This document shows, in pieces, positions 4,749 through 40,894 of a stretch of 64,000 nt of DNA; positions within the stretch are counted from its first letter, which is position 1, and each line of letters opens with the position of its first letter. Origin of the DNA: an uncultured Candidatus Saccharibacteria bacterium (GTDB taxonomy: Bacteria > Patescibacteriota > Minisyncoccia > Phycocordibacterales > UBA1006); the NCBI GenBank assembly GCA_964350165.1, contig CAYGJA010000003.1, forward strand, positions 4,233 to 68,232, given 5' to 3'. The notes under the pieces were generated by a model. The model worked only from the letters and a program-made list of their open reading frames with translations, made no database searches and was not told the DNA's origin. A program made the position numbers and the translations under genes.

Positions 4749-4820
4749 GGCGTGGTGGTGAAGTGGTAACACTACGGTCTGCAAAACCGTCATGCGCGGG
4801 TTCGATTCCCGCCCACGCCT
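4749..4820 (+). tRNA. tRNA-Cys (anticodon GCA), 72 nt, no encoded CCA
   Basis: Acceptor GGCGTGG/CCACGCC; anticodon stem ACGGT/ACCGT with loop CTGCAAA (U33, GCA, A37); T arm GCGGG-TTCGATT-CCCGC; discriminator T. Confidence 0.85.
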
Positions 4821-4822
4821 CA

Positions 4823-5011
4823 TATGACATTAGGTCGAGGGACAGTAGTCCTTCGGCCTTTTGTTATACATGGTGTTGCGGGAATCGAAAGACGGAGGCC
4901 GCGAAGCCGCCCGCAGGGCGTGGCCGAGTCAGGGTCGTGAGCGTATATTTTCTTAACTGCGTAGCAGTTTTTGAAAATAACGACTCCTGACCGATTCCCG
5001 CCCACGCCTCA
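4823..5011 (+). repeat. tRNA-3'-associated element copy 1: ~169 nt GC-rich insert beginning (T)ATGACATTAGGTC, followed by a 20-nt direct repeat (4992-5011) of the tRNA-Cys 3' end (4803-4822)
   Basis: CGATTCCCGCCCACGCCTCA occurs at 4803-4822 (T-loop to 3' end plus CA) and again at 4992-5011. The intervening sequence is homologous to the insert after tRNA-Leu(TAG) at 6885-7064, sharing ATGACATTAGGTC, GGCCTTTTGT and GCGGGAAT.G.A.GA.GGCCGC blocks. Confidence 0.7.
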
Positions 5012-5013
5012 AG

Positions 5014-5059
5014 AAAACAAATCCCCCGCAAAGCGAAAGCTTTGCGGGGGATTTGTTTA
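5014..5059. terminator. Bidirectional intrinsic terminator between the tRNA-Cys unit (+) and tRNA-Leu(TAA) (-)
   Basis: Perfect inverted repeat AAACAAATCCCCCGCAAAGC-gaaa-GCTTTGCGGGGGATTTGTTT: a 20-bp stem flanked by A/T runs on both sides. Confidence 0.75.
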
Positions 5060-5065
5060 AAAATG

Positions 5066-5150
5066 TGCCGGAGGCGGGACTTGAACCCGCACGCCGTATA
5101 AGGGCAAGGGATTTTAAGTCCCCCGTGTCTACCGATTCCACCACCCCGGC
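5066..5150 (-). tRNA. tRNA-Leu (anticodon TAA), type II with long variable arm, 85 nt
   Basis: Minus-strand sense: GCCGGGG-TGGTGGAATCGGTAGACACG-GGGGA-CTTAAAA-TCCCT-TGCCCTTATACGGCGT-GCGGG-TTCAAGT-CCCGC-CTCCGGC-A. Anticodon loop CTTAAAA gives UAA. Confidence 0.85.
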
Positions 5151-6663: not shown

Positions 6664-6736
6664 CCGCTCGTAGCTCAGTTGGTAGAGCAGCTGGCTCTTA
6701 ACCAGACGGTCGTAGGTTCGAATCCTACCGGGCGGA
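6664..6736 (+). tRNA. tRNA-Lys (anticodon CTT), 73 nt
   Basis: Acceptor CCGCTCG/CGGGCGG (one G.U); D arm GCTC-AGTTGGTA-GAGC; anticodon loop CTCTTAA gives CUU; T arm GTAGG-TTCGAAT-CCTAC; discriminator A. Confidence 0.8.
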
Positions 6737-6799
6737 CACGTCCGCCCGGAGCCAACCAAGCACCGAGCGGAAGTAGTCAATTTTTTGACAATAAAAGAT

Positions 6800-6884
6800 G
6801 CCGGAGTGGTGGAATTGGTAGACACGCTTGCCTTAGGAGCATGTGGGGTAACCCGTGCTGGTTCGAGTCCAGTCTCCGGCACCA
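6800..6884 (+). tRNA. tRNA-Leu (anticodon TAG), type II, 82 nt plus genomically encoded CCA (6882-6884)
   Basis: GCCGGAG-TG-GTGG-AATTGGTAGA-CAC...; anticodon stem CTTGC/GCATG with loop CTTAGGA gives UAG, G37; variable arm TGGGGTAACCCGTG; T arm CTGG-TTCGAGT-CCAG; acceptor 3' TCTCCGGC-A-CCA. Confidence 0.85.
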
Positions 6885-7085
6885 ATGACATTAGGTCTTG
6901 TTCTTTAGAACAGGGCCTTTTGTCATTTTGGCGGGAATGGACGAGAAGGCCGCAGCGGGGCCCCAAGGCGAGACCGAACAGGTCGACCATTGGGGAGCGA
7001 GGCGCGGGCCCGCAGTCCGAGAAATAATGACCGCAGGGAAATATATTTCTCGAGAACATGTGGGCGAGTCCAGTCTCCGGCACCA
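6885..7085 (+). repeat. tRNA-3'-associated element copy 2: ~180 nt GC-rich insert beginning ATGACATTAGGTC directly after the CCA of tRNA-Leu(TAG), followed by a 21-nt direct repeat (7065-7085) of the tRNA 3' end (6864-6884)
   Basis: CGAGTCCAGTCTCCGGCACCA is present at 6864-6884 (T-loop to CCA) and again at 7065-7085. Insert is homologous to copy 1 at 4823-4991. Confidence 0.7.
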
Positions 7086-7118
7086 AAACAAAAACCCTCA
7101 TTTGAGGGTTTTTGTTTT
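7086..7118. terminator. Bidirectional intrinsic terminator (AAAACCCTCA-tt-TGAGGGTTTT flanked by A and T runs)
   Basis: aaaacaaaaaccctcatttgagggtttttgtttt lies between the tRNA/element unit (+) and the 3' end of the minus-strand gene ending at 7142. Confidence 0.7.
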
Positions 7119-7141
7119 GGTTGTTTTATTTATTTCTGGTT

Positions 7142-8494
7142 TTAGGAAGGAAGATTATCTAAGAAATCTTTTTTCTTTTTCTCCAGTTCATCCTCCTCGG
7201 ATTCTCCCCAAGGGTCCTCGGAATCAAAATCATCTCCCTCGTCACCCTCCACCTCCTGACCAATCTGAGGCTCAATATCGTCGATGGACTGCGGAGCGCT
7301 CTCAATAGCTGACTTGGTCATATTATCCAGGTCGGTGTCATTTGGACTCAGCTCTCGGCTGATAACGTCTTGGAGTTCTTTCTCGGCCTGTTCTTGTTCT
7401 TTTTGTTCTTTGTATCGCAAGTAGATTCGTCGTCCAACCAAAACAATAACCAGCAGCAATATCACAATCACCAACCAACCCAAGAACGTCCGTGGCAAGA
7501 ATCCGCCACTTGTGGCACCGGCAGCTGGGCGACCATCACTATCGTATTCGTTGATATCATAATGCACCGCACTAGCTTGGGAGCCAGTGGTTGGATTGGT
7601 ATAGAAAACAATAGCCGCTGCCGCCACTCTAGTTCCCTCTCGCAGGGCCGTTACGACGCGGACGTTTACTTTGACATCGCCGTCTTCGTCTTCTTCTAGG
7701 TCGCCAAGGTCAAACACAGCTGCGTGTTCTTTGCGCAAATACACCCCTTCACCGGCTGATAGGAATTCGGTGTTATCAGGCAGTTCTACTTTAATAAAAA
7801 CGTCATCGATTTGAGTATTAGAAACATTTTGATAATTGATTTCGTAGGTCAAGATATCTCCGACGGTAAAAGTCTCGCGATCATCGGTGATATCAAGCGC
7901 AATATGAGCCGGAACTGGGGGCTCGGCTACTTGGTTATTGGTTTCATTATTAGTTTCGTTATTGGTCGTATTGTTGGTAGTATTATTGGTTTCGTTGTTG
8001 GTGGTATTACTGCCGTTATTGTTTGGAGTCCCGCCTTGATTTACATTTCCATTTGGTTGTTCAATAACCGTAATGTTGGTACCACCATTGTATCCAGCCT
8101 GTTGACCAGGAACCGGCAAGGTAATAAAGCTGATCGTAGGCCCGTACACGATACCGTTACGGTTCTGCCCTACGACGCGCGCGTAGTAATTGGTGTTTGG
8201 TAGCAGGTTGTTCACTTCGACAGAGATATTGTCCGAAAATCGAGAATGACTACGCGATACGGTTGATTGCCCAAAAGAAGTAGTCTGCCCATATTGGAAA
8301 AAAGTCTGTGGTCGGTCCGCCCGATCTCCACCTACGTTGACAGCATAACTACCGTTCAATACAGCGGAAGTTTGAGTAACATTAGAAGCACCACCCGTCA
8401 GCACGGTCAAGTTGGTTGACTGGGCCGAGGCCGGAACTGCCGAAAATATAAAAATGCTAAATAATGATAGCGAAAATGCGAGTATTTTTTTCAT
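7142..8494 (-). CDS. Cell-surface protein: signal peptide, FN3-like domain, Asn/Thr low-complexity linker, DUF11-like repeat domain, C-terminal TM anchor with acidic tail
   Basis: Signal peptide MKKILAFSLSLFSIFIFSAVPASA; ...TSAVLNGSYAVNVGG...YARVVGQNRNGIVYGPTISFIT (FN3-like); TTNNETNNTTNNTTNNETNNETNN tract; TFTVGDILTYEINYQNVSNTQIDDVFIKVELPDNTEFL (DUF11-like); TM GWLVIVILLLVIVLVG followed by an E/D-rich tail. Confidence 0.55.
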   Translation of the reverse strand: MKKILAFSLSLFSIFIFSAVPASAQSTNLTVLTGGASNVTQTSAVLNGSYAVNVGGDRADRPQTFFQYGQTTSFGQSTVSRSHSRFSDNISVEVNNLLPNTNYYARVVGQNRNGIVYGPTISFITLPVPGQQAGYNGGTNITVIEQPNGNVNQGGTPNNNGSNTTNNETNNTTNNTTNNETNNETNNQVAEPPVPAHIALDITDDRETFTVGDILTYEINYQNVSNTQIDDVFIKVELPDNTEFLSAGEGVYLRKEHAAVFDLGDLEEDEDGDVKVNVRVVTALREGTRVAAAAIVFYTNPTTGSQASAVHYDINEYDSDGRPAAGATSGGFLPRTFLGWLVIVILLLVIVLVGRRIYLRYKEQKEQEQAEKELQDVISRELSPNDTDLDNMTKSAIESAPQSIDDIEPQIGQEVEGDEGDDFDSEDPWGESEEDELEKKKKDFLDNLPS

Positions 8495-8680
8495 AACAAA
8501 AGTATACCGAAATAATTAGAAACAACCACATTGTACGTGAAGAACCTTCAAAAGTATAGACATATTGTATTTTTGTGGTGTTATTTTTAAATTTGCCCAG
8601 TGTCTCTCTATATTCAAAAAGGTATAAAAAGTGGACAAAGTACCCAAAAAATGGTATAATGTTAAAAAGAAACTTAAAAA

Positions 8681-9220
8681 ATGAAAAAGAAACTCTTCAC
8701 ACTGGTGCTGGTGGTGATTATCTTGGCAGCCATTATCTATCCCTACGGGGAGAAAAAAGGCTGGTGGGATGATTGGTCGTCAAAACCTACCACCACGAGA
8801 CAACGGGGGTTCTACCCCCGAGAGACCTACCTGCTAGGTCAAGATACGGCAAGCTACGACCGGGACAGCCTCCTGGTCATTTTCCGAGTGCTGTCTTCAG
8901 ACAGCACCTATGTAATCAGCACTGCCGGGGTTCTGAATATGGGGGTGGCGCAAATCACCCCCAGCGACATTACCCACGGCAGCTTCCCAATCATGGCTCG
9001 CTGGGAGGCCCTGGACGGCCGAATAGTGGCCCCCAGAACCAACCTAAACTGGTCCGCGATCCTGATGAACATGCAGGATGGGGGGAATGTTTGGCCTCAA
9101 GAGATGAACTCGGTCAGGCTATCTTTCACAGCGGACCAGACCAACTTTCTGGCAGCCGCCGACACGGTGCCACTAAAAAAAGCCACCCTGTGGCGGGTAA
9201 TGAAGAAGACAAAAAAATAA
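8681..9220 (+). CDS. Hypothetical secreted protein (signal anchor MKKKLFTLVLVVIILAAIIY)
   Basis: 179-aa ORF with an N-terminal hydrophobic signal; no recognisable catalytic motif. Confidence 0.4.
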   Translation: MKKKLFTLVLVVIILAAIIYPYGEKKGWWDDWSSKPTTTRQRGFYPRETYLLGQDTASYDRDSLLVIFRVLSSDSTYVISTAGVLNMGVAQITPSDITHGSFPIMARWEALDGRIVAPRTNLNWSAILMNMQDGGNVWPQEMNSVRLSFTADQTNFLAAADTVPLKKATLWRVMKKTKK

Positions 9221-9266
9221 AAACAAGAGGCGGCAGACAGAGTTGCCGTCTCACAACACCAGTTAA

Positions 9267-10262
9267 ATGAAAAATTTCGCAGTTTCGGTACTAGTTGTTG
9301 CTGCTTATTTTCTTCTCGGCCTTGGTGTCGGGTGGGTAATAGACACAGCAGCAGCCCAGCTACTAGGGGTGGAGCCTACTAGCTGGCTGGTCATCCCGGG
9401 CACGGCAATTCTCGTGGCCTATTTACTGTTCACGGCTAGCACGGTCATAAAGATCGTGCCCGGCCAAGAAGCGGAAGTTCGCTTTCGCAATGCTTTTTTT
9501 GCCACGGTAAAGAGCGGTGGCGACTTACTTTTACCCCCTGGATTTTCGGGGATAACCGTAAAGACAAGTACGAGCCAAAAAACGCTATCAACAACGGTTA
9601 TTGACCGGAACGGGCTCGAGATACCCGTGGAGGTAACAATGGACTACCGTATCCACGGCAGTCGAAAAGCCTTGACGTTGATAGATACGGACAAGAAACA
9701 GACGCTAGAGGGTCTCCTTCAAGAGATTCTAGAGAAAGTGTGCGCCGCATTCCAGGACTATACGGCAAAGCTACCTATAGTCATATTCAACCTGAAGGGA
9801 AAAACCTCAGAAGTGCGAGTGGAAATGAATCGAGATCTGCTCAGAGAAGGACTGAGTATAGAAGAAATTACAAAAGGATTCAGGGCAGCCAAATGGGACA
9901 AATCCATATTCCGGGTCGCACCGGATCCCCCAACAATCGTCTTCTACGATTGTATCCACGTCCTCGCCTTGACGGTAAAGGACGTGGAAGTTCCAAAAAA
10001 AATCCGAGAAGAAATGGAGCGTCTTCTCCAAGAGTTCATCGAAACAGCTGCTGCTGGAGCAGAGATGGATGAAATTTTAAACAGGATGAAGGAACAGGTG
10101 AAGGAGGGAGGAAACCCAGACCTTGTCCTCGGAAATCTCTACAAACGCCTTGGCAAAGTAGAAGGCGGTCCCACGGTCAAAAAATTGATCGTGGATGCGG
10201 GCGAGGGCAATAACCTGATGGCCAAAATCCTCGCGGCCATAAATACGGCCCGCAGCGAATAG
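9267..10262 (+). CDS. SPFH/band-7 (stomatin/prohibitin-like) membrane protein
   Basis: Two N-terminal TM helices then IVPGQEAEVRFRNAFFATVKSGGDLLLPPGF...TVIDRNGLEIPVEVTMDYRI, matching the SPFH pattern (vp.g..av..rfG.....pGl....P......v..r.q.....q...T.D...v.vd.vv.yrv); coiled-coil C-terminus. Confidence 0.55.
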   Translation: MKNFAVSVLVVAAYFLLGLGVGWVIDTAAAQLLGVEPTSWLVIPGTAILVAYLLFTASTVIKIVPGQEAEVRFRNAFFATVKSGGDLLLPPGFSGITVKTSTSQKTLSTTVIDRNGLEIPVEVTMDYRIHGSRKALTLIDTDKKQTLEGLLQEILEKVCAAFQDYTAKLPIVIFNLKGKTSEVRVEMNRDLLREGLSIEEITKGFRAAKWDKSIFRVAPDPPTIVFYDCIHVLALTVKDVEVPKKIREEMERLLQEFIETAAAGAEMDEILNRMKEQVKEGGNPDLVLGNLYKRLGKVEGGPTVKKLIVDAGEGNNLMAKILAAINTARSE

Positions 10263-21965: not shown

Positions 21966-22187
21966 TTCTATGGGTCGAATTCAACATCACCTGATCACAT
22001 CCTTTGTTCGCCTTCTTACCATACACCATGTATGCACTTGTACACTATGCACACATGGATTTTTGCTTTTTTAACGATAAAAGCATCGGGCTGACGTTTC
22101 GCGTCATAACAGCCATCACGCTATTGCAACAGTGCAATAATCGACCGATTCGGCCTCAGTGAGCAAGCTCATCTGGGCTTTATATCG

Positions 22188-23637
<1,450 letters not shown>

Positions 23638-23867
23638 ACTGGAAGATGAACCATAAATGGTTCATCGTATAGTAAGAAGACGAACAAAAAATGTCATTCG
23701 CCAACTTAATCAAAATTAAACTGGATTGTTTAGACTCTCTCCGGCGAGAGAGTCTGTGATGCTGAATTGTCAAAGTCCTTCGCGACCCATTCGTATGGGG
23801 CAATTCAAAAGAAAAGACCCACTGCAATCAGTCGTGTGGCCAGTATATAGAGTTACAGAAATGTGTC

Positions 23868-38854: not shown

Positions 38855-40894
38855 ATGAACACAAACCCATCACCACGGCCAAGCCGAAATAATAGCCCCA
38901 GCAACCAAACCAGAGTCTATCGCTCTGGAACAGGTTCCAGCACAAAACCCAAAACGCACTCAGGCGGAAACCGACTTACCCCAAGGCGGACAGAAACGTC
39001 GGGACAATCAAGTCACACAGGCGACAATCAGGCCCAAAGAACGGCTGGTTCAGCAAATCATCCCCGAGGAGGTCGAAATAATAAACGACCAGGTGGCTCT
39101 TCAAGTGCACCTCGCCGAAGACTGTCTTCGAACCGAAGGCCCCGAAGACAAAAAAGCACCAAGCCAACCTCATTGCGCGCGCCAGAAAACGCGAGCAGTC
39201 TTATCGCCAATATTCCTCCACTTGCCAACGGTGACATTCGTATAATTCCAATTTGTGGAGTCGAATGGATCGGCACCAACATGACCGCCGTTGAATACAA
39301 GGACGAAATTATTGTTATTGATGCCGGTTTTGGTTTTGGAAATCCGGACACTCCTGGTATCAATTACACCGTTCCTGATATTGCCTATTTGGAAGCGAAC
39401 AAACACAAAATCAAAGCTTTGGTAATTACCCATGGCCATCTTGACCACGTAGGCTCTATCCCTTTTATCATTGAAAAAATTGGAAATCCACCAATCTACA
39501 CCCGTGAATTTGGAGCAATTTTTATTAAAAAAAGAATGGAAGAATTTCCACACATAAAAGAGCTGGACATTGTCACAGTACAGGCAGACGATGGATTCTT
39601 GCCTCTTTCCGAAAACCTCAAGGTTCGCTTCTTTGGTTTGACTCATAGTATCCCCGACTCCAGCGGAGTGATCATCAAAACCCCCATTGGAAGTATCGTC
39701 AACACCGGTGACGTACGTGTCGAAAACGACAACGGCGTTGTACCTCAGGCAGAATATGATCAATATGCATTTTTCAAAGACGAAAATGTTCTTCTTTTGG
39801 CAATGGACTCAACCGGTGTTATCAAGCCAGGTTGGTCGCTTAGTGAAGAAGTAGTCAAAGATAATATCGACAAAATCATTCGTGACGCTCAGGGGCGATT
39901 GTTTATTGCAGCCTTCTCGTCTCATGTGGACCGCATGATTTCTTTTATGGAAAGTGCAAAAAAATACGGCAAATACGTAGCCATTGAAGGTCGATCCATG
40001 AAAAGCAATCTTTCTATTGTTGACCATCTGGGACTGACTAATTTTGACCACGTTATTTCAACAAAAGAAATAGATAACTACCCGCCCAACAAAATCCTAG
40101 TTCTTATGACCGGGGCTCAGGGTGAACAATATTCTGCCCTCAACCGCATGGCCAACGAAACTCACAATGATCTCAGACTAACCCCAACCGACACGGTCGT
40201 ATTGTCCGCTTCGGTTGTTCCAGGAAATGATTTTGCCGTCTCCAAACTAAAAGACAACCTATATCGCGGTAGCTATCACGTGGTTACTTATCAGGACAAC
40301 CAGGTTCACGCCTCTGGACACGGAAAAAGAGAAGAGCTTACTTGGATTCATAATCAAATTCCATACAAATTCTTTATGCCTGTTCATGGTGAACACAACA
40401 TGCTCAAAATTCATGCCACCTTGGCCAAAGAGCTCGGTACCCCTGAAGAAAACATTATTGTTCCAGACAACGGAAGTGTTATCGAAATTCGCGACAACGG
40501 TAATAGCTTTGTAAAACTCAAAGAAAAAGCACCAGCCCGAATGATTGTTGTTGATGGAAAAATGCTAGGTGAAATCCCTGATGTTGTCATGCGTGATCGA
40601 AAAATGCTAGGTGAATCTGGAATCTTTGTGGTGGTGGTAAGCGTAAACACCAGAACCGGAAAACTCAAAAAATCACCAGATCTTATTTCTCGAGGCTTTA
40701 TTTATCTTCGCGAAAACCAAGAACTGCTACATAAAGCCAGAAATCTTGTTAAGAAAACAGCCGAAAAAACAGCCAAGCCAGGTATGGTTGATTTTGACAA
40801 TGTCAAAAACCAAGTCGCCGAAGCCGTTGAACGCTTTTTGTTCCAAGAAACAGGCAAAGAACCCATTGTTATCCCCGTTGTGCTCGCAGTATAG
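38855..40894 (+). CDS. rnj: Ribonuclease J (beta-CASP metallo-beta-lactamase RNase) with a ~125-aa basic, low-complexity N-terminal extension
   Basis: ...ALVITHGHLDHVGSIPFI... (HxHxDH); ...NTGDVRVEND...; beta-CASP and C-terminal domains. N-terminus MNTNPSPRPSRNNSPSNQTRVYRSGTGSSTKPKTHSGGNRLTPRRTETSGQ...RRRLSSNRRPRRQKSTKP is disordered and Arg/Ser/Pro-rich. Confidence 0.85.
   Translation: MNTNPSPRPSRNNSPSNQTRVYRSGTGSSTKPKTHSGGNRLTPRRTETSGQSSHTGDNQAQRTAGSANHPRGGRNNKRPGGSSSAPRRRLSSNRRPRRQKSTKPTSLRAPENASSLIANIPPLANGDIRIIPICGVEWIGTNMTAVEYKDEIIVIDAGFGFGNPDTPGINYTVPDIAYLEANKHKIKALVITHGHLDHVGSIPFIIEKIGNPPIYTREFGAIFIKKRMEEFPHIKELDIVTVQADDGFLPLSENLKVRFFGLTHSIPDSSGVIIKTPIGSIVNTGDVRVENDNGVVPQAEYDQYAFFKDENVLLLAMDSTGVIKPGWSLSEEVVKDNIDKIIRDAQGRLFIAAFSSHVDRMISFMESAKKYGKYVAIEGRSMKSNLSIVDHLGLTNFDHVISTKEIDNYPPNKILVLMTGAQGEQYSALNRMANETHNDLRLTPTDTVVLSASVVPGNDFAVSKLKDNLYRGSYHVVTYQDNQVHASGHGKREELTWIHNQIPYKFFMPVHGEHNMLKIHATLAKELGTPEENIIVPDNGSVIEIRDNGNSFVKLKEKAPARMIVVDGKMLGEIPDVVMRDRKMLGESGIFVVVVSVNTRTGKLKKSPDLISRGFIYLRENQELLHKARNLVKKTAEKTAKPGMVDFDNVKNQVAEAVERFLFQETGKEPIVIPVVLAV

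Follow-up and report, generated by a model that had tools for sequence, protein, structure and literature searches.

A 64,000-nt stretch of DNA from an uncultured Candidatus Saccharibacteria bacterium (contig CAYGJA010000003.1; the whole stretch is hereafter called the window) carries, immediately behind its gene for tRNA-Cys(GCA), a short insert that is closed by an exact second copy of the 3' end of the tRNA. On balance, this insert is probably one copy of a lineage-specific family of structured noncoding RNAs (ncRNAs) that occupy the 3' trailers of tRNA genes within a Paceibacteria-like clade of the Patescibacteria. About ten members of this family, which we call modules, are found behind five tRNAs (Cys, Tyr, Trp, Leu-TAG and Leu-TAA). 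The modules are best filed as a new, sequence-unrelated tRNA-trailer RNA family that is RtT-like, and not as the scar of an integrase. A first-pass annotation of the same DNA had left three readings of the insert: a miniature integrative element that is mobilised in trans, what is left of a larger island after deletion, or a structured ncRNA co-transcribed with the tRNA. The last of these is the best supported, by covariation, strand bias, purifying selection and an architecture in common with RtT RNA, while co-transcription itself is put forward by analogy.

The tRNA-Cys and tRNA-Leu(TAG) modules

ARAGORN and Rfam agree on the position of tRNA-Cys(GCA), which is located at 4749-4820/21 on the + strand. 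The 20-mer CGATTCCCGCCCACGCCTCA has exactly two occurrences, at 4803-4822 and at 4992-5011; 100 shuffles gave 0 matches to it when 2 mismatches were permitted. This repeat runs from C56 in the T-loop to the discriminator and the two bases beyond it (CA). The segment between the two copies, 4823-4991, is 169 nt long and its first letters are TATGACATTAGGTC. A second tRNA of the window, tRNA-Leu(TAG) at 6800-6884, has an exact 22-nt repeat, CGAGTCCAGTCTCCGGCACCAA, at 6864-6885 and 7065-7086. This repeat likewise begins at C56, and the insert that it encloses likewise begins with ATGACATTAGGTC. The two inserts are homologous past their common 13-mer: a covariance model of the Leu(TAG)/Tyr type covers the Cys module at its full length (31 bits, with a rough E-value of 3e-6).

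The first-pass annotation had reported the Cys insert with its exact repeat, a homologous insert behind tRNA-Leu(TAG), a family rather than a single occurrence, and the lack of an open reading frame (ORF), all of which hold. It had also described the insert as markedly GC-rich. Enrichment is indeed present, with a GC content of 0.53-0.60 against 0.36-0.50 in nearby DNA, but it is only moderate. The nested local GC stem that it had proposed is not retained, as GCGGGAATCG has no local pairing to CCCGC and its partner is the downstream repeat CGATTCCCGC. That annotation did not mention the internal antisense segment, the copy behind tRNA-Tyr that lies just outside the window on its upstream side, or the precedent of RtT.

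The two modules of the window comprise the following features.

4749-4820/21, + strand: tRNA-Cys(GCA), intact, with CCA incompletely encoded (..CCT-CA-T)
4803-4822, + strand: Cys repeat copy 1, C56-U73 plus CA, within the tRNA
4823-4868, + strand: Cys T1, a terminator-like extended hairpin, with core stem 4832-4859 followed by TTTGTTAT
4871-4887, + strand: Cys antisense segment ('guide'), TGGTGTTGCGGGAATCG, 17 nt
4888-4991, + strand: Cys inner domain, GC-rich, two hairpins inside the closing helix
4992-5011, + strand: Cys repeat copy 2, sense, the 3' strand of the closing helix P1
5015-5058: Cys T2, the native bidirectional intrinsic terminator, common with the convergent tRNA-Leu(TAA) at 5065-5150
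6800-6884, + strand: tRNA-Leu(TAG) (ARAGORN, Rfam), which hosts the second module of the window
6884-6927, + strand: Leu(TAG) T1 hairpin, with core 6893-6918 followed by TTTGTCATTT
6929-6945, + strand: Leu(TAG) antisense segment, TGGCGGGAATGGACGAG, 17 nt
6946-7064, + strand: Leu(TAG) inner domain, of which 64 nt have 87.5% identity with the tRNA-Tyr module of the same genome
7065-7086, + strand: Leu(TAG) repeat copy 2, C56-CCA plus A
7082-7121, + strand: Leu(TAG) T2, the native terminator, which adjoins the tRNA directly in the empty-site relatives L069-L071

Along the strand of the tRNA, a module can be described as a T1 hairpin, a 17-nt antisense segment complementary to tRNA positions 56-73, an inner GC-rich domain of 100-125 nt with two hairpins, and a sense repeat of tRNA positions 56-73(76), behind which the native terminator is located. 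The junction between T1 and the antisense segment measures 1-3 nt in every member. The flanks of T1 in the Cys module, ATGACATTAGG and CCTTTTGT, are common to the Leu(TAG) module; the inner stems differ by compensatory changes. The segments 4832-4859, 6893-6918, 7082-7121 and 5015-5058 each combine a GC-rich hairpin with a T-run, as intrinsic terminators do.

The antisense segment and the sense repeat form the closing helix P1, which is composed of 10 bp (56-65), an internal loop (66-67/69) and a further 4-6 bp up to position 72/73. In tRNA numbering, g8-g17 pair with 65-56, g7 lies opposite the internal loop 66-67, and g1-g6 pair with 73-68. In the Cys module, the antisense segment pairs with repeat copy 2 over positions 56-65 and 68-72, and it is equally complementary to the T-loop and T-stem of the tRNA itself (12/12 with 4801-4812, through T54-T55). 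Since complementarity to the real tRNA is perfect through T54-T55, the antisense segment is an inverted copy of the 3' strand of the T-arm and acceptor. It is conceivable that it pairs instead with the tRNA's own 3' half, giving a structural switch.

All full members are predicted to fold as T1 plus a P1 helix that encloses the domain, and the predicted folds are far more stable than those of shuffled sequence (z = -9.8 for the Cys insert and -6.5 for the Leu(TAG) insert). The module RNA is thus a predicted three-way junction, the end of which imitates the acceptor/T-arm side of the cognate tRNA, with a discriminator and a CA or CCA tail.

Members of the family and constraint on their fold

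Syntenic loci of relatives were fetched through homologues of the flanking membrane protein and of IF-2, and were then screened by script. In the genome of the window itself, a third module is located behind tRNA-Tyr(GTA), at 362-566 of locus L025 on the - strand, 3.7 kb upstream of window position 1. It has an exact 20-nt repeat, CGAATCCAGCCGGGCGCACA, from C56, and its domain is a mosaic, with a 5' half like that of the Leu(TAG) module and a 3' half like that of the Tyr module of L068. In relatives, tRNA-Tyr modules are also present in L068 and L075, tRNA-Cys modules in L074 and L075, a tRNA-Trp module in L075 and a tRNA-Leu(TAA) module in L032; the Leu(TAG)/Tyr-type model recovers the last of these as well (E = 4e-4, again a rough value). 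The sibling L027, with 90% IF-2 identity, has a 'mini' Leu(TAG) module of 75 nt that is internally deleted. The possibility that this mini version represents an ancestral platform was rejected, as the full 17-nt antisense segment is kept and its pairing partner is gone, which corresponds to an internal deletion. There is one unit per tRNA among the members, with no tandem array, and no module copy away from a tRNA was found at the loci examined in the window and in relatives.

At other loci the site is empty and the native terminator follows the tRNA directly. Empty sites are found for Cys in L027, the L031 group and L076, where the terminator equivalent to T2 sits directly after tRNA-Cys; for Tyr in L067; for Leu(TAG) in the L069-71 group and L076; and for Leu(TAA) in the window, L027 and the L031 group. 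The tRNA-Lys site is empty in all loci examined. The tRNAs that host modules (Cys, Tyr, Trp, Leu-TAA and Leu-TAG) are all charged by class I synthetases and the class II tRNA-Lys is always empty, in what is a small sample. In L027, an 825-aa ORF (7302-9779) with fibronectin-type-III/CBM-like features is located between tRNA-Cys and tRNA-Leu(TAA), in the place of the window's module. Several contigs of relatives end at tRNA-Cys or within a module (the end of L074, both ends of L075, and the ends of L067 and L081), which suggests that modules or tRNA ends act as assembly-breaking repeats and that those genomes hold more copies.

The constancy of the unit bears on the second of the earlier readings, in which a module is the attL-attR scar left by deletion of a larger island or prophage from the tRNA. 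The flanking repeats of the tRNA 3' end do resemble attL and attR. However, independent deletions would not yield the same unit of about 155-205 nt, with the same gap of 1-3 nt between T1 and the antisense segment, at five tRNAs in several genomes, and no island genes are left at any member. This explanation is very improbable and we regard it as effectively refuted.

The P1 helix covaries with the identity of the tRNA. Over six members, 82% of the cells in P1 are paired; shuffled sequences give 69% (0/500) and slid controls 23-40%. Both sides have changed in 8 of 16 pairs. For the structure of the whole family, a five-member alignment that was fitted to the model, and so favours structure, has 92.7% of cells paired compared with 73% in shuffles and 33-47% when slid, with compensatory changes at 25 of 49 pairs; none of 500 shuffles was as high on any measure, and the margin is large. 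The E-values of the model are to be taken as rough. Orthologous Tyr modules hold the 10-bp helix by different G-U pairs, GUUGGAUUCG and GCUGGGUUCG each pairing with CGAAUCCAGC. In the tRNA-Tyr module of L075, the repeat has decayed to 8 nt of identity with the tRNA, yet it has co-evolved with its antisense partner (UGUU:GACA, z = -8.3). Because this repeat has decayed while changing together with its partner, the conserved thing is the helix, and not the duplication as such. The fold is also strand-biased, being 10-19 kcal/mol more stable on the sense than on the antisense strand in 5 of 6 members, and the mismatches of P1 are G-U on the strand of the tRNA.

Conservation of the modules is higher than neutrality would predict. 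Third-codon positions of infB have 43% identity between the window and L074 and 39% between the window and L068, and are thus saturated. Over the same distances (the window genome against L074 and L068), the Cys and Tyr modules have 74-77% identity overall and contain identical blocks of 22-29 nt. The first 41 nt of the Cys inner domain are 90% identical to those of the tRNA-Cys module of L074, compensatory stem flips included; in one such flip, CGCCC-GCA-GGGCG becomes CGGGC-GCA-GCCCG. The stems of T1, in contrast to the domain, are fully turned over between lineages. That the domain is conserved above the neutral expectation while the adjoining T1 stems have turned over speaks for long-term selection on the domain and not for recent transfer of the whole unit.

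These observations also bear on a neutral origin, in which a module is non-functional debris of tRNA-gene rearrangement, the 3' half of the tRNA having been duplicated around a terminator hairpin, partially in tandem and also in inverted form (by fold-back or template switch). The tRNA 3' half, T1 and the antisense segment do form one long imperfect palindrome, and the units of E. coli RtT RNA are tandem duplications. Two pieces of tRNA sequence nearby agree with it as well, namely a simple inverted repeat of the tRNA 3' end in the trailer of tRNA-Lys in the window, and a partial 5' duplicate upstream of tRNA-Tyr. But neutral DNA would have lost the identical blocks of 22-29 nt, the 25 compensatory pairs and the constant 17/18-nt helix layout at a distance at which synonymous sites are saturated, and neutral persistence is least likely in streamlined genomes of about 1 Mb. 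We consider this origin improbable.

Of these two pieces, the first adjoins tRNA-Lys(CTT) at 6664-6737, where the trailer 6738-6750, ACGTCCGCCCGG, reads as the inverted complement of the 3' end of that tRNA, CCGGGCGGAC; the two would form a hairpin of 8-10 bp across the end of the tRNA. The trailer is present in L027, and L069-71 have a plain terminator instead. It could represent a minimal, 'antisense-only' relative of the modules, or else serve as a processing signal. The second is a degenerate, partial 5' tRNA-Tyr-like gene (GCGTCTGTGGCG...ACTGTAAATC) at about 690-749 of L025 on the - strand, just ahead of the real tRNA-Tyr, which hints that tRNA-Tyr was once duplicated in tandem, as at E. 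coli tyrT-tyrV.

Comparison with RtT RNA and a proposed mode of action

In E. coli, knowledge of RtT RNA goes back to 1978-1991, and the RNA has so far been a curiosity of a single tRNA-Tyr operon. The tyrT-tyrV locus has four RtT units (Rfam RF00391; rttR). In MG1655, the 178-bp unit ends in the last 19 nt of tRNA-Tyr, from A58 to CCA, and this 19-mer is repeated 3 times after tyrV. Each unit holds GGGGAAGGAT, which is complementary to its copy of the tRNA-Tyr 3' end, and in the RF00391 consensus the RNA is closed by that antisense/copy helix around a GC-rich core of several hairpins. The modules share this plan. Both are located in the 3' trailer of a tRNA, on its strand, and their units have comparable lengths, 178 nt for RtT and 154-204 nt for the modules. 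Both units terminate in a direct copy of the tRNA 3' end that reaches the CCA end, starting at A58 in E. coli and at C56 in the modules. In both, an internal antisense segment of about 10 nt pairs with the copy and closes a GC-rich, multi-hairpin RNA, and (G/C)GAA(G/A) comes next after the antisense segment.

The differences are in sequence and distribution. RF00391 has no match to modules at E <= 10 or at its 45-bit gathering score (window, L026, L032 and L074), where the positive control, L078, reaches 133-138 bits; in the opposite direction, a model built from the modules gives RtT units 6-8 bits (E of about 1-5). Modules occur singly behind tRNAs of at least five identities, while RtT forms a tandem array behind tRNA-Tyr only. 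They are preceded by a terminator-like hairpin, lack an embedded small ORF such as tpr, and belong to the phylum Patescibacteria rather than to Enterobacteria. Modules are thus built like RtT and, by analogy, would work like it; we do not call them RtT homologues because membership in RF00391 fails.

Functional RNAs cut from the flanks of tRNAs or tRNA-like structures, with ends set by the enzymes of tRNA maturation, include mascRNA/MALAT1 (RNase P and RNase Z) and the E. coli 3'ETS-leuZ sponge RNA. The predicted module RNA would work like these, since it flanks a tRNA and its ends would be made by tRNA maturation; unlike it, they do not contain a duplicate of the neighbouring tRNA's 3' half paired to an antisense copy. 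In E. coli, rtT RNA is described, in the accounts given by later papers, as released by processing of the tyrT transcript and as a possible modulator of the stringent response (Bösl & Kersten 1991, cited in PMC3318445 and bioRxiv 10.1101/2024.07.17.603846). By analogy with rtT, read-through of T1 would give transcripts that carry the module, and cleavage at the 3' end of the tRNA would then generate the 5' end of the module RNA. The tRNA-like end of P1, with its N73-CA/CCA tail, would direct 3' trimming and possibly CCA repair. This would yield a stable RNA, about 150-190 nt long, with a role in some tRNA-linked process. More speculatively, its tRNA-specific 3' end may be CCA-tailed, or may be recognised by the cognate class I synthetase or by the stringent-response machinery; in either case the modules would be tRNA-specific regulators, in E. 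coli and Patescibacteria alike. Transcription, processing and function are in this way inferred from analogy, while the architecture, covariation, strand bias and sequence conservation of the modules are read directly from the DNA. Separately, the window encodes at 38855-40894 an RNase J homologue, with a beta-CASP domain and an RNase J C-terminal domain, which is a candidate trailer-processing nuclease.

Several points weigh against a trailer RNA family. The members all come from a single syntenic neighbourhood in about nine relatives, and the structural alignments have few sequences and were in part made to fit the structure. P1 includes A73 in a pair, as a genuine acceptor end would not. 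T1 scans as a competent intrinsic terminator and an internal promoter was not found in the module, so the module would be transcribed only by read-through. L027 lacks the Cys module and its Leu(TAG) module is internally deleted; therefore, modules are dispensable in at least some lineages. Exact repeats of 20-22 nt and clean empty sites are also expected from an insertion event, and a purely vertical model of an RNA gene fails to explain related domains behind different tRNAs with matched antisense segments and repeats.

An antisense segment that pairs with exon-like sequence is reminiscent of the internal guide sequence of an intron, and one member has the motif CUGAUGAG. A small self-splicing or self-cleaving RNA tied to the tRNA, such as a group I intron or a hammerhead, is nevertheless scarcely credible. 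A permissive Rfam search, group I introns and ribozymes included, detected no family inside any module at E <= 10. The upstream tRNA is complete and uninterrupted, leaving nothing to splice, and CUGAUGAG is not a motif that the members conserve. Moreover, where group I introns have been reported in tRNAs of Patescibacteria, they are located in the anticodon loop.

Protein coding was likewise not detected: read from the aligned sequences, the open frames of the GC-rich core lack a codon-like pattern of substitution. A small ORF like E. coli tpr was considered and rejected; the frames are open through GC content, the substitutions are not codon-like, and the 5' half is wholly different in L068. 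Peptides from the spurious ORFs of the antisense strand, used as protein queries, had no match.

History and possible mobility of the modules

In every member, the direct repeat extends from the T-loop to the 3' end of the tRNA. This is the 'T-loop sublocation' that Williams reportedly described in 2002 as a signature of integrases. It raises the possibility, put first among the earlier readings, that a module is a miniature, non-autonomous integrative or mobile element. Such an element would insert at the T-loop and duplicate positions 56-76, either mobilised in trans by a tyrosine integrase encoded elsewhere or recombining, like CTX-phage attP(+) or integron attC, as a folded single strand whose antisense and sense copies imitate the duplex tRNA target. 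Modules have features in common with the att duplications of tyrosine integrases and with integrase-less derivatives such as CIMEs: the repeat flanks the insert, the tRNA stays intact, and relatives have clean empty sites for Cys, Tyr, Leu(TAG) and Leu(TAA). The contigs of relatives break at or inside modules, and one domain subfamily occurs at different tRNAs. The layout of P1, an imperfect hairpin of two inverted, target-like copies with an unpaired central spacer and a variable terminal structure, also resembles folded attC and attP(+).

On the other side, the large ORFs of the 64-kb window and the flanks of every member were searched for mobility genes, and no integrase, reverse transcriptase or transposase was present, either in those flanks or among 23 proteins compared with Pfam (22 window ORFs and 1 from L027). 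BLAST searches with modules had no match in phage and plasmid records, the motifs of the conserved domain had none in viral contigs, and the motif ATGACATTAGGTC...GGCC had chance matches only in viral contigs and GTDB genomes. An excised circle would measure only about 190 nt and would carry no gene. In contrast to att duplications, the modules enclose only about 170 nt without cargo, contain an internal antisense copy of the repeat, which is not a feature of att sites, and show RNA-type covariation and a bias to the sense strand. In contrast to attC and attP(+), they have neither a recombinase nor a conserved R/L-box or dif-like sequence nor cargo, and their inner domain is conserved in sequence where the terminal structure of those sites varies. 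The copies appear old rather than recently acquired, with at most 87% identity over 64 nt within the genome, and the domain is conserved far past the neutral expectation while T1 diverges, which argues for selection rather than recent transfer. The repeat can decay while the helix persists, as in L075, and the occupancy of Cys and Tyr sites fits the IF-2 tree with a few losses. As the main explanation, a mobile element of this kind is possible but rather unlikely, with weak support from the empty sites and the form of the repeat.

Other mobile or guide-type systems were rejected as candidates. A miniature inverted-repeat transposable element would have constant terminal inverted repeats and a short target-site duplication, at varied places in the genome. 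Here the arms are tRNA-specific and vary with the host tRNA, no copies lie off tRNAs at the loci examined, and no duplication flanks the arms. The protein gene associated with a TnpB/omega-RNA-like scaffold and guide, an IS110 bridge RNA, a retron ncRNA or a primer-binding-site-like primer site is absent.

For a family of trailer RNAs, the history can be followed on a neighbour-joining tree of IF-2, which has the topology ((L074,L068),((L031 group,L067),(L027,window))). The occupancy of the Tyr and Cys sites fits presence in the ancestor of the clade, with a few losses. The sibling L027 is visibly losing modules, as its Cys module is gone and its Leu(TAG) module is internally deleted. If modules are lost by recombination between their 20-nt repeats, clean empty sites of just the observed kind would result. 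The same domain subtype is, however, found behind different tRNAs: behind Tyr and Leu(TAG) in the genome of the window (87.5% identity over 64 nt), and behind Leu(TAA) of L032 and Trp of L075 (86.7% over 60 nt). Either the domain is exchanged between existing modules by recombination, or modules occasionally colonise new tRNAs; a component of mobility therefore stays alive.

A more speculative account is that the module is a self-propagating, tRNA-parasitic RNA or single-strand element without a protein of its own. Its two-hairpin domain would move between tRNA genes and gain antisense and sense copies templated on the 3' half of the new tRNA. The copying would proceed by fold-back or target-primed synthesis, or by recombination of the folded hairpin by host enzymes, and the RtT repeats of E. 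coli would be a fossil of the same process. We hold this to be a long shot.

The RtT architecture is now seen in a phylum with genomes of about 1 Mb, behind at least five tRNA species, with strong covariation and with a sequence conserved between lineages in which synonymous sites are saturated. This makes a general class of RNAs tethered to tRNAs a more likely source than mere accident. The family offers a comparative handle on the role of the closing helix and of the tRNA-like end, be it as a processing signal, a tRNA mimic or a recombination site. It also adds a candidate ncRNA family for the annotation of Patescibacteria, and a caution that duplications of tRNA 3' ends are not always integrase scars.

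The terminator-like hairpin has a wider distribution. A metagenome scan for a T-arm followed by ATRACATTA, a hairpin and TTTTGT gave 32 loci, all of them a plain tRNA with a terminator and without the repeat. The T1-type hairpin is therefore a common type of tRNA terminator in these lineages and not a marker of modules. At many tRNA loci of metagenomes, AT(G/A)ACATTA comes immediately behind the end of the tRNA. A terminator 'cassette' with the flanks ATGACATTAGGTC ... GGCCTTT(TGTCAT) and a freely varying inner stem is found in the window at 4824-4867 and 6885-6926, in L068 below 2978 (- strand) and in L052 at about 290-335. The tRNAs ahead of it are Cys, Leu-TAG, Trp and Met; some of them have no module, and one belongs to a metagenome contig that is unrelated.

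Two further features of the window lie outside the modules. A 16S rRNA gene is located at 22187-23644 on the - strand; 23S and 5S genes were not detected in the 64-kb window, and the rRNA genes therefore appear unlinked. A 450-aa ORF (7142-8494, - strand), which has weak DUF11/fn3 matches, contains five to six tandem 12-nt repeats (TTATTGGTTTCA-like) at 7931-7999.

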